A stretch of DNA of 63,827 nucleotides, the filler included, from Stramenopiles sp. TOSAG23-6 (lineage: Eukaryota): assembly GCA_900128565.1 (NCBI GenBank). It is 3 parts of 3 records of this genome, joined end to end, with 100 filler letters (N's around TTAATTAATTAA, not from the genome) between each part and the next. Parts side by side here need not be neighbours in the genome. Positions count along the whole stretch, not along the records: positions 44,483 to 63,827 come from LT636050.1; 2 more parts are not named here. One strand, 5' to 3'. The translations under genes were made by a program, and so were the position numbers. Positions within the stretch are counted from its first letter, which is position 1, and each line of letters opens with the position of its first letter. The notes below the pieces were generated by a model. The model had not been told where the DNA came from, did no database searches, and saw only the letters and a program-made list of their open reading frames with translations. This document shows, piece by piece, positions 55,510 through 56,484 of this stretch.

Positions 55510-56484
55510 ATGAGGTATGTAACATATTTTATTTTATAGTGTCTATTTTGTATTTATTCTCACCAAAATTGTTTTTGACGTAATATACTGATGGATTCTT
55601 ATTCTCTGACAAACTTGACAATATTCCTCTTAAAATAGTTATGCCTATCTATTCAAGTACATTATTATTGGTGATACAGGTGTTGGTAAATCTTGTCTAC
55701 TTCTGCAGTTTACTGACAAACGGTTCCAGCCAGTTCACGATTTGACAATTGGTGTCGAGTTTGGGGCAAGAATGATATCGATTGATGGAAAACAGATCAA
55801 ACTTCAGGTACGTTGTAGTCATTATTTATTTTACGATTTACTCCTTTTAGACTTTTTTTCCCGCCGTGCGTATTGAAATTTCAATATACTCATACAAAAA
55901 TAGAATGTAATATATGCATTTTGTAGATTTGGGACACAGCCGGTCAAGAAAGTTTTCGATCTATAACACGTTCTTATTATCGTGGTGCTGCAGGAGCTCT
56001 TTTGGTTTACGATATTACACGGAGGGAAACATTTGTTCAACTTGAAAAATGGCTCAACGAAGCTCGTGAAAATGCCAGTGCTAATATGGTTATTATGTTG
56101 ATTGGTAATAAATTGGACTTGGAACATAAAAGGGTTGTATCAACTGAAGAAGGTGCGGCATTTGCTAAAAAAAATGGACTTGTTTTCCTTGAAACATCTG
56201 CAAAAACAGCTGCTAATGTCGAAGAAGCATTTGTAAGAACTGCTGATAGCATATACCACAATATTCAAGAAGGTGTGTATGTATGTTTTATTTTTTTTTT
56301 CAAATTCGTTTTTTTTTCGTACGAAATTTTGTACCTAACAAATTTTTAAAAAAAATTGAAATATTTTTTCATAATATATGACGTTACTAATGAAGCAAGT
56401 GGAATTAAAGTCGGTGTTGGAGGTTCTGGGAATTTGTCATACCCTCAAGGTAACGCAGCTGGTGATAAAGGAGGTTGTTGTTAA
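55510..56484 (+). CDS. RAB2: Rab2 GTPase; exons 55510-55514, 55639-55807, 55927-56280, 56380-56484
   Basis: [44 protein letters not shown]...[18 protein letters not shown]...GGCC. Confidence 0.97.
55515..55638 (+). other. Canonical GT-AG intron
   Basis: ATGAG|GTATGT...AATAG|TTATGCC. Confidence 0.9.
55808..55926 (+). other. Canonical GT-AG intron
   Basis: CTTCAG|GTACGT...TTGTAG|ATTTGG (KLQ-IWD). Confidence 0.92.
56281..56379 (+). mobile_element. Repeat-family intron GT...AT
   Basis: TAT|GTATG..CATAATATAT|GAC; restores EGVY-DVTNE. Confidence 0.9.

Follow-up and report, generated by a model that had tools for sequence, protein, structure and literature searches.

Introners, families of related introns found in unrelated genes, are known with canonical splice sites from Micromonas and Aureococcus. 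In those of the Chrysochromulina type, the element supplies the donor and a target-site duplication provides the acceptor; their splice sites are described as canonical (PMC9860276). Other systems depart from GT-AG. Non-canonical introns form the majority in the larvaceans Fritillaria borealis and F. pellucida, where they derive from elements resembling miniature inverted-repeat transposable elements (MITEs), with terminal repeats and target-site duplications (PMC13326754; PMC11282704). The introns end in a YAY triplet, which is often repeated ahead of the donor, and AT is their most frequent 3′ terminus (44% in F. pellucida, 34% in F. borealis); canonical introns survive in small number, the major spliceosome carries out removal, the main classes are AG/AC and AG/AT, and U2AF is duplicated in F. 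borealis (PMC13326754; PMC11282704). For Amoebophrya, more than 60% of the introns are described as non-canonical, among them repeated introns with inverted repeats and direct repeats of 3-5 nucleotides (nt) over their borders; no clear terminal dinucleotide pattern is described. These repeated introns belong to many families, and their inverted repeats, at 8-20 nt, are long and form hairpins (PMC7789003). Here we describe a family of GT..AT introners in a 63,827-nt stretch of DNA from Stramenopiles sp. TOSAG23-6 (GCA_900128565.1), which consists of three parts of three records joined with filler and is called the window below. The case that drew attention to it is the gene for Rab2, in which two ordinary GT-AG introns stand beside one GT-AT intron. 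The third Rab2 intron is, in our judgement, probably a copy of a short, non-autonomous, DNA-transposon-like introner resembling a MITE, spliced out together with one duplicate of its target site, most plausibly by the major spliceosome.

The introner family and its removal from RNA

An iterated nhmmer profile run over both strands of the window gave 36 matches at E<1e-3, or 37 when the threshold was relaxed to E<0.01. Borders were fixed for 28 copies, which are the ones counted as introns; they were placed by anchored curation after placement by regular expressions had proved too noisy. The initial annotation had put the non-canonical introns of the window at about 35, which is the right order of magnitude. 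The profile overlooks diverged members, since a copy in the Vac14 gene (60616-60725, minus strand) was found by inspection alone. The curated copies are 90-114 nt long (median 97) and share 55-93% pairwise identity, and their host genes include Rab2, urocanase, Vac14, a DDX18-like helicase and a kinase.

Three blocks are conserved in an alignment of 24 copies: the first nine bases (GTAYGTTTT), a central block ending in TTTTGTACCTAAC, and the last 20 or so bases. The last of these, ATATTTTTTCACAATAY followed by two further bases, is conserved as strongly as the central box, with its CTAAC core reminiscent of yeast-type branch sites. Twelve of the 28 copies open with the hexamer GTACGT, eight with GTATGT, two with ATACGT and six with other sequences; in all, 26 introns start with GT and two with AT. 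The distance of the putative branch A from the 3′ end was 32-55 nt in 25 copies. Between this A and the 3′ end of these copies, AG was seen eight times against 18.6 expected, and six of the eight fall within 11 nt of the branch A; this scarcity fits a spliceosome that still avoids stray AGs. Two further sequence features recur in the element. GTAC is found three times per element, in the donor, in the middle and in the branch box, and two perfect 12-nt palindromes, AAATTCGAATTT and TTTCGTACGAAA, recur in many copies (e.g., at 22050-22062 and, on the minus strand, 52835-52850); a transposase might bind to them, or they may simply be part of the history of the element.

The introns end in AT in 23 of the 28 copies, in TT in three, and in GT and AC in one each. 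By last triplet, CAT (14) and TAT (8) together make YAT the ending of 22 copies, and the remainder are TTT (2), CAC, AAT, CGT and CTT (one each). The exonic dinucleotide before the element is AT in 16 copies, GT in five, TT in three, AC in two, and CT and GC once each, and insertion is often in front of a G. The same dinucleotide stands before the element and at the intron end in 19 of 28 copies. Among the five copies with ends other than AT, four match their upstream dinucleotide (GT/GT, AC/AC and TT/TT twice; shuffle p 0.00035). Such a pattern marks a target-site duplication of 2 bp, which is mostly AT.

Several lines of evidence indicate that the copies are removed as introns. Open reading frames (ORFs) of at least 30 codons flank the copy on each side and share one phase in 25 of the 28 cases, where chance would give one third. 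When 24 introner copies are excised together with the two canonical introns of Rab2, ORFs fuse into long frames, five of which are given in Table 1. The spliced urocanase is colinear with all four full-length homologues across three introner junctions. None of the 37 profile matches lies antisense inside verified coding sequence, while one overlaps the tail of an open frame on the opposite strand.

RNA evidence was drawn from 12 seawater metatranscriptome runs, which hold 6-20% of the words of 51201-61200. Four of these runs were aligned on 45000-63827; they consist of assembled contigs and thus inform on presence and joints, not on levels. Precise removal is seen in these contigs for two introner copies, both in the urocanase gene. 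At copy 51947-52042, the joint 51942/52039 skips 96 nt and occurs in runs X3, X4 and X5, which fall under two study codes, with shorter sides of 61, 134 and 38 letters, respectively. At copy 52788-52878, the joint 52786/52878 skips 91 nt in run X4, with a shorter side of 84 letters. The contig pieces listed at the two joints contain no other letters. For both joints, the class of equivalent placements includes GT..AT, and GT-AG occurs in none of the placements. A search with the central urocanase ORF against proteins of 161-513 residues gave a best match of 61% identity and no same-species transcript covering the junction residues.

In run X1, from a library prepared without polyA selection, the repeat itself is very abundant. 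The summed contig depth of this run is 1278-1819 in bins with introner copies as against 0-48 in most exon bins, and it holds many chimeric joints between introner copies. The depth over the copies may reflect excised introns, pre-mRNA, or carry-over of DNA from many genomic copies.

Rab2 and its two classes of intron

Rab2 occupies 55510-56484 on the plus strand, with four exons and three introns, as read from the sequence of 54900-57100. The spliced model has 210 codons, is free of gaps at all junctions including the third, and is colinear with 11 of 11 Rab2 homologues; the best protein matches include Blastocystis and other stramenopiles. The matches to Rab2 chains run up to residue 62 in exon 2 and resume with residue 63 in exon 3, in agreement with the placement of intron 2. 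A search with exon 4 against PDB returned chance matches only and is uninformative, because Rab tails are absent from solved structures. Among the 77-245-residue entries of a large protein collection, no protein identical to the Rab2 of this sequence (55927-56346, plus strand) was found, the best being 92% identical, and the gene may have been missed by existing gene models. The primase of the window has a 96% match that carries a genome-annotation label.

The initial annotation had described this gene as carrying two non-repetitive GT-AG introns and one repeat-family GT-AT intron, and its coordinates proved correct. Neither intron 1 nor intron 2 matches the family profile, even at E up to 1000. 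The donor GTAYGT is indeed shared between the classes, being GTATGT, GTACGT and GTATGT in introns 1 to 3. Retention of normal AG removal, also proposed there, is borne out by RNA: a joint at 55512/55637 in run X3 skips 124 nt with a shorter side of 92 letters and, after a 2-base shift, equals removal of 55515-55638 as GT..AG.

Intron 3 belongs to the repeated family. A 21-mer from its start has eight matches in the window at up to three mismatches, where 0.06 are expected, and the family profile finds the intron with an E of 8e-15. If it were retained, the frame of exon 3 would stop 22 codons in, at 56346. The sequence at its borders repeats for three bases to one side and a single base to the other, which allows five placements with identical mRNA (TA..TA, AT..AT, TG..TA, GT..AT and TA..TG), none of them GT-AG. 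The putative branch A is 56338, 41 nt from the 3′ end. Removal of this intron is backed by the colinear alignment of homologues and by a single contig whose end coincides with the boundary. Record 14 of run X3, a contig of 412 letters with a depth of 4.4, has its first 313 letters on 55965-56277 and breaks off exactly at the left border of the class of equivalent placements. Position 56415 is covered in X3 by a single contig, equal in depth, whose distance figure is consistent with a piece that begins at 56377; together these contigs lend indirect support to a 99-nt skip. The intron is a member of the subfamily that has diverged least (mean pairwise identity 0.80), but its nearest copy is only 77% identical with gaps counted; the insertion is not a very recent one.

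The suggestion that the canonical introns are the older class found no support. Across 80 metagenome loci homologous to Rab2 exon 3, neither the intron-2 nor the intron-3 site is shared: the match runs unbroken over the intron-2 site in 79 and over the intron-3 site in 59, and among loci of at least 3 kb the corresponding counts are 24 of 24 and 20 of 24. No break at either site was found among the 80 loci, the best of which is 76% identical and many of which are perhaps transcripts. The comparison of intron positions is therefore a weak test in both directions and does not separate the two classes. The same 80 loci contain no match to the introner element.

The two canonical Rab2 introns are the only confirmed GT-AG introns of the window, for which the initial annotation had given about four canonical ones. 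Ab initio GT-AG scans were not used for counting, as they give many antisense and chance candidates. Candidates from a noisy ORF-joining scan are 18667-18798 (plus strand), one from 36759 (plus strand) and 16350-16304 (minus strand). The first of these (GTAAGT..TAG, 132 nt) would fuse 142 and 451 open codons of a leucine-rich-repeat gene.

Mechanism, borders and alternative explanations

The observations can be joined in one scheme. The element would insert with a 2-bp target-site duplication, and it brings, in one orientation only, the donor GTAYGT as its first bases, the branch-site box TTTTGTACCTAAC, a T-rich tract and the 3′ block ending in ATATTTTTTCACAATAY. The pre-mRNA would then be cut at the first base of the element and a second time directly behind the downstream copy of the duplication, so that exactly one element and one duplicate would be lost and the reading frame restored. 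Because the downstream duplicate would leave with the element, the intron ends in whatever the duplication happens to be, which is usually YAT and not YAG. Choice of the 3′ site would have to tolerate U, and rarely C, as the last intron base, presumably in acceptor recognition or at the second step. The second acceptor mode that the initial annotation proposed is upheld to this extent, that non-AG repeat introns are precisely removed, as the 96- and 91-nt joints demonstrate; the non-AG end is, however, not a free-standing acceptor motif but the downstream 2-bp duplicate. Since ordinary GT-AG introns with GTAYGT donors are present in the same transcript, the major spliceosome is the most likely agent. 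It is also favoured because the element brings a donor, a branch box and a T-rich tract, because AG is scarce, and because no RNA structure is supported. Spliceosomal chemistry, use of the A in CTAAC as branch point and the factor that reads the 3′ end are all inferred.

A further possibility, which we hold only tentatively, concerns how the 3′ end is found. The 3′ cut may be set by signals borne on the element at a fixed two bases past the conserved 3′ block, with the terminal dinucleotide unread and a nearby AG ignored. Restoration of frame in copies ending in GT, AC and TT would fit, and so would conservation of the 3′ block equal to that of the branch box. Copy 42934-43034 (minus strand) has an AAG 4 nt before its in-phase end, and use of this AAG would be out of phase, which also fits. 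If true, the acceptor would be defined by the transposon's own end and not by YAG, and any duplicate (AT, TT, GT or AC) would serve.

Placement of the borders 2 nt upstream would turn the family into AT..AC introns made of the upstream duplicate and the element. Such a placement yields identical mRNA wherever the duplication is AT, as in copy 52788-52878 and Rab2 intron 3, and A as first base with C as last is a compatible pair in AT-AC introns. However, copy 51947-52042 has TT upstream and AT at its end, and its RNA joint class, found in three runs, excludes the shifted reading, which was rejected on this ground. The shift would also put the conserved GTAYGT at intron positions 3-8 and predicts the opposite of the conservation seen: AT is found downstream in 23 of 28 copies and upstream in 16, as expected if the downstream copy is intronic and under selection. 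The GT..AT borders are favoured, and for the family as a whole we give the AT..AC alternative next to no weight. A similarly negligible probability attaches to the idea that the elements are never removed, the genes being broken or misassembled, or that the insertions are polymorphic and the joined RNA stems from element-free strains. Both linker-bearing scaffold gaps do adjoin repeat copies, and contigs cannot reveal whether an empty-site form of the DNA exists. Yet the copies are diverged, lie in sense orientation only, restore the frame in 25 of 28 cases, and interrupt conserved genes where homologues run colinear, and independent RNA libraries contain the element sequence itself.

Two other machineries deserve consideration in place of the major spliceosome. 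Removal of the repeat-family introns by the minor (U12-type) spliceosome, with the GT-AG introns left to the major one, could draw on the family 5′ end GTATGTTTT and the box ACCTAAC, each of which is only one or two positions off the U12-type consensus. Long, constrained donor and branch motifs and tolerance of a non-AG 3′ end are features of U12-type introns, some of which end in neither AG nor AC. The U12-type donor consensus is RTATCCTT, though, and the introners have GTAYGT, with GT and not CC at positions 5-6. Their box lies 32-55 nt from the 3′ end, as against a customary U12 window of about 10-26 nt, and both canonical Rab2 introns use the same GTAYGT donor. No Rfam family matched the window at gathering score, and hence no minor small nuclear RNA was seen, although 64 kb says little on this point. 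We regard a U12-type route as improbable. Removal outside the spliceosome is slightly less probable still. In such a process, pairing of terminal repeats would join the ends and another activity would cut, as has been proposed for the nonconventional introns of euglenids and discussed for the introners of Amoebophrya. The duplication at both borders, the short inverted terminal repeat and a 4-bp stem that closes the ends in two single-sequence folds, leaving the terminal AU unpaired, are in line with it. Against it, RNAalifold found no consensus pair on 24 copies, single-sequence folds are weak (z-scores of -0.36 to -2.6), AG is depleted downstream of the box, the donor and branch box are conserved in one orientation only, and the copies are sense-only in genes.

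Some observations weigh against splicing of a MITE-like introner by the major spliceosome and should be set beside those in its favour. To our knowledge, G as first base with U as last is not a pairing known from studied spliceosomes. The joint of Rab2 intron 3 itself is absent among the joints listed, so that its removal is deduced, and the RNA contigs could in principle derive from strains without the insertion. Three of the 28 copies are not in phase as drawn: one contains five Ns, another lies close to the end of a gene and the third has deviant ends. The ATACGT copy 52949-53045 (minus strand) is perhaps removed less efficiently, since its last 13 bases seem to be present in one X4 contig. 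The terminal inverted repeat is short in most copies, at 3-4 bases (GTA[Y]/[R]TAC), and extends imperfectly to about 8 of 9 bases with a 1-nt gap in one subfamily, the least diverged. Neither a transposase domain nor an autonomous partner was found among the 46 long ORFs of the window scanned against Pfam. Owing to the short inverted repeat and to this result, the element is called MITE-like and not a proven MITE.

Catalogue, genome setting and known systems

The curated copies, the Rab2 gene model and the merged frames are listed in Table 1. For the 447-codon gene at 34682-36496 (minus strand), no Pfam match was found in the two ORF pieces scanned. The ATACGT copies 52949-53045 and 11531-11628 (both minus strand) have A at the first intron base, and the frame nevertheless needs their removal.

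Table 1. Positions in the window of the Rab2 gene, merged reading frames and introner copies with fixed borders.
Feature	Coordinates	Strand	Details
Rab2 exon 1	55510-55514	+	start codon and 2 bases; colinearity with 11 homologues
Rab2 intron 1	55515-55638	+	124 nt, GTATGT..TAG, non-repetitive; RNA joint; no family-profile match
Rab2 exon 2	55639-55807	+	matches Rab2A chain residues 7-62
Rab2 intron 2	55808-55926	+	119 nt, GTACGT..TAG, phase 0, non-repetitive; no family-profile match
Rab2 exon 3	55927-56280	+	118/118 residues align to Rab2B and Rab2A chains
Upstream copy of target-site duplication (AT), exonic	56279-56280	+	border curation of family copies
Rab2 intron 3	56281-56379	+	introner copy, 99 nt, read as GTATGT..ATATAT; profile E 8e-15
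Branch-site-like box GTACCTAAC of Rab2 intron 3	56331-56339	+	most conserved block of the family
Conserved T-rich 3′ block of Rab2 intron 3	56358-56379	+	ends in downstream duplication copy AT, 56378-56379
Rab2 exon 4	56380-56484	+	tail with two terminal cysteines, then TAA
Merged frame	12899-16054	-	1016 codons across 1 intron
Merged frame, Has1/DDX18-like helicase	30481-32555	+	661 codons across 1 intron
Merged frame	34682-36496	-	447 codons across 5 introns
Merged frame	41172-43868	-	794 codons across 3 introns
Merged frame, urocanase	51261-53659	-	705 codons across 3 introns
Amino-acid transporter gene introner intron, first-base A	11531-11628	-	ATACGT; in phase, 105 + 308 open codons
Introner copy, GTACTT..	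11922-12030	-	out of phase as drawn; borders tentative
Introner intron fusing two ORFs into 1016 codons	14540-14647	-	border curation, ORF merging
Introner intron, Has1/DDX18-like helicase gene	32016-32107	+	AT/AT; in phase, 511 + 149 open codons
Introner intron 1/5 of ORF 34682-36496	34837-34931	-	border curation, ORF merging
Introner intron 2/5 of ORF 34682-36496	35025-35119	-	upstream GT, end AT; ORF merging
Introner intron 3/5 of ORF 34682-36496	35329-35421	-	border curation, ORF merging
Introner intron 4/5 of ORF 34682-36496	35487-35582	-	border curation, ORF merging
Introner intron 5/5 of ORF 34682-36496	35791-35885	-	border curation, ORF merging
Introner intron	40348-40444	+	GTACAT..ACAT; in phase, 202 + 80 open codons
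Introner copy with five single Ns	40623-40730	+	phase not fixed
Introner intron	41761-41874	-	upstream GT, end AT; ORF merging
Introner intron	42169-42268	-	border curation, ORF merging
Diverged introner intron	42934-43034	-	GTAAGT..ATTT, TTGAAC replaces CTAAC; 278 + 240 open codons
Introner intron	44115-44227	-	upstream GT, end AT
Introner intron with GT/GT duplication	45354-45445	+	ends CGT; in phase, 284 + 48 open codons
Introner copy	45568-45657	+	GTGTGT..ACAT; downstream exon begins AG; phase weakly determined
Introner intron	49884-49976	+	AT/AT; in phase, 218 + 349 open codons
Urocanase introner intron	51947-52042	-	96 nt, GTACGT..ATATAT; upstream TT, end AT; RNA joint; colinear with 4 homologues
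Urocanase introner intron	52788-52878	-	91 nt, GTATGT..ATACAT; RNA joint; colinear with homologues
Urocanase introner intron, first-base A	52949-53045	-	ATACGT..GTAT; colinearity with 4 homologues requires removal
Introner intron	54200-54291	-	border curation, ORF merging
Vac14 introner intron	60382-60488	-	GTACCC..GCAT
Vac14 diverged introner intron, TT/TT	60616-60725	-	missed by profile; 94 + 62 open codons
Vac14 introner intron, TT/TT duplication	60989-61080	-	border curation
Protein kinase gene introner intron	62950-63042	+	border curation, ORF merging
Introner intron, AC/AC duplication	63470-63569	+	border curation

Further copies stand outside this catalogue. Degenerate copies outside open frames, in untranslated regions (UTRs) or intergenic, are found at 10300-10414, 20352-20409, 28884-28998 and 40982-41026, all on the minus strand; the one at 10300-10414 overlaps the tail of an opposite-strand NUDIX frame. 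Two of them, 10300-10414 and 28884-28998, have outer GTAAGT/GTAATT..YAG ends and were not counted as introns because no open frames adjoin them; they could be UTR introns with canonical ends. An intron of the kinase gene ending near 63386 was excluded, since its trial borders (63271-63386) are out of phase. Copies at 63762-63825 (plus strand) and 19-87 (minus strand) are cut by the ends of the window, and the right-end copy starts with GCAGGT in place of GTAYGT. The scaffold gaps at 22183-22282 and 44383-44482, each made of 44 N, TTAATTAATTAA and 44 N, directly adjoin introner copies, and the first is preceded by two partial copies in tandem (22031-22182); the assembly seems to break at the introner repeat.

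The window is gene-dense, with a G+C content of 27-41% in 2-kb windows, mostly 31-41%. Its host looks like a marine stramenopile of the MAST (marine stramenopile) type: the ORF for the DNA primase large subunit (37855-39348, minus strand) is 96% identical to a protein labelled GSMAST32.., and the next matches are at 52-53%. Gene finders that assume GT-AG would split or miss most genes in genomes of this kind, as Rab2 exemplifies, and gene counts and functional inventories of uncultured marine grazers may in consequence be too low. The presence of both intron classes side by side in single, highly conserved genes makes it testable how strictly a spliceosome reads the last base of an intron.

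Full-text literature searches found no report of such introns in stramenopiles, and a search combining GT-AT with introner returned no papers. Two articles on MAST single-cell genomes bear on this point. The article text of the first, supplements aside, uses "intron" twice, in the methods only, and "canonical" and "splic" not at all (PMC5778133), and that of the second, again supplements aside, does not use "intron" (PMC8163842). What appears new is a non-AG introner class with a strong canonical donor, in a lineage for which no report was found; the kind itself is known from Fritillaria and Amoebophrya.

Comparison with these systems places the family among introners, as related introns in unrelated genes with a target-site duplication and precise removal from mRNA. 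It is like the introns of Fritillaria in being transposon-derived, non-canonical and flanked by a duplication, in having AT as the commonest 3′ end, in standing alongside canonical introns and, probably, in being spliced out by the major spliceosome. YAY endings of the Fritillaria type are present (CAT 14, TAT 8 and CAC 1 of 28, with upstream AT in 16), whereas a non-GT 5′ end is found in two copies only, both AT. Unlike Fritillaria, the host is a stramenopile-like protist, the donor is a strong GTAYGT and not AG, one family dominates, the branch box is yeast-like and the duplication is 2 bp long. With introners of the Chrysochromulina type the family shares repetition, a duplication, one splice site from the element and the other from the duplicate, and unchanged mRNA length; the difference is that the duplicate here is AT (sometimes TT, GT or AC), so that the co-opted acceptor is not AG. 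Amoebophrya is likewise a marine protist with repeated non-canonical introns and border repeats, but in the window GT..AT dominates, no hairpin is supported, and donor and branch signals are clear. With this stramenopile, a chordate and a parasitic dinoflagellate would be joined by a further, independent lineage whose non-GT-AG introns became the majority through a transposon burst. Uncommonly regular in its pattern, the family combines a strong canonical donor and a branch box with a YAT acceptor.

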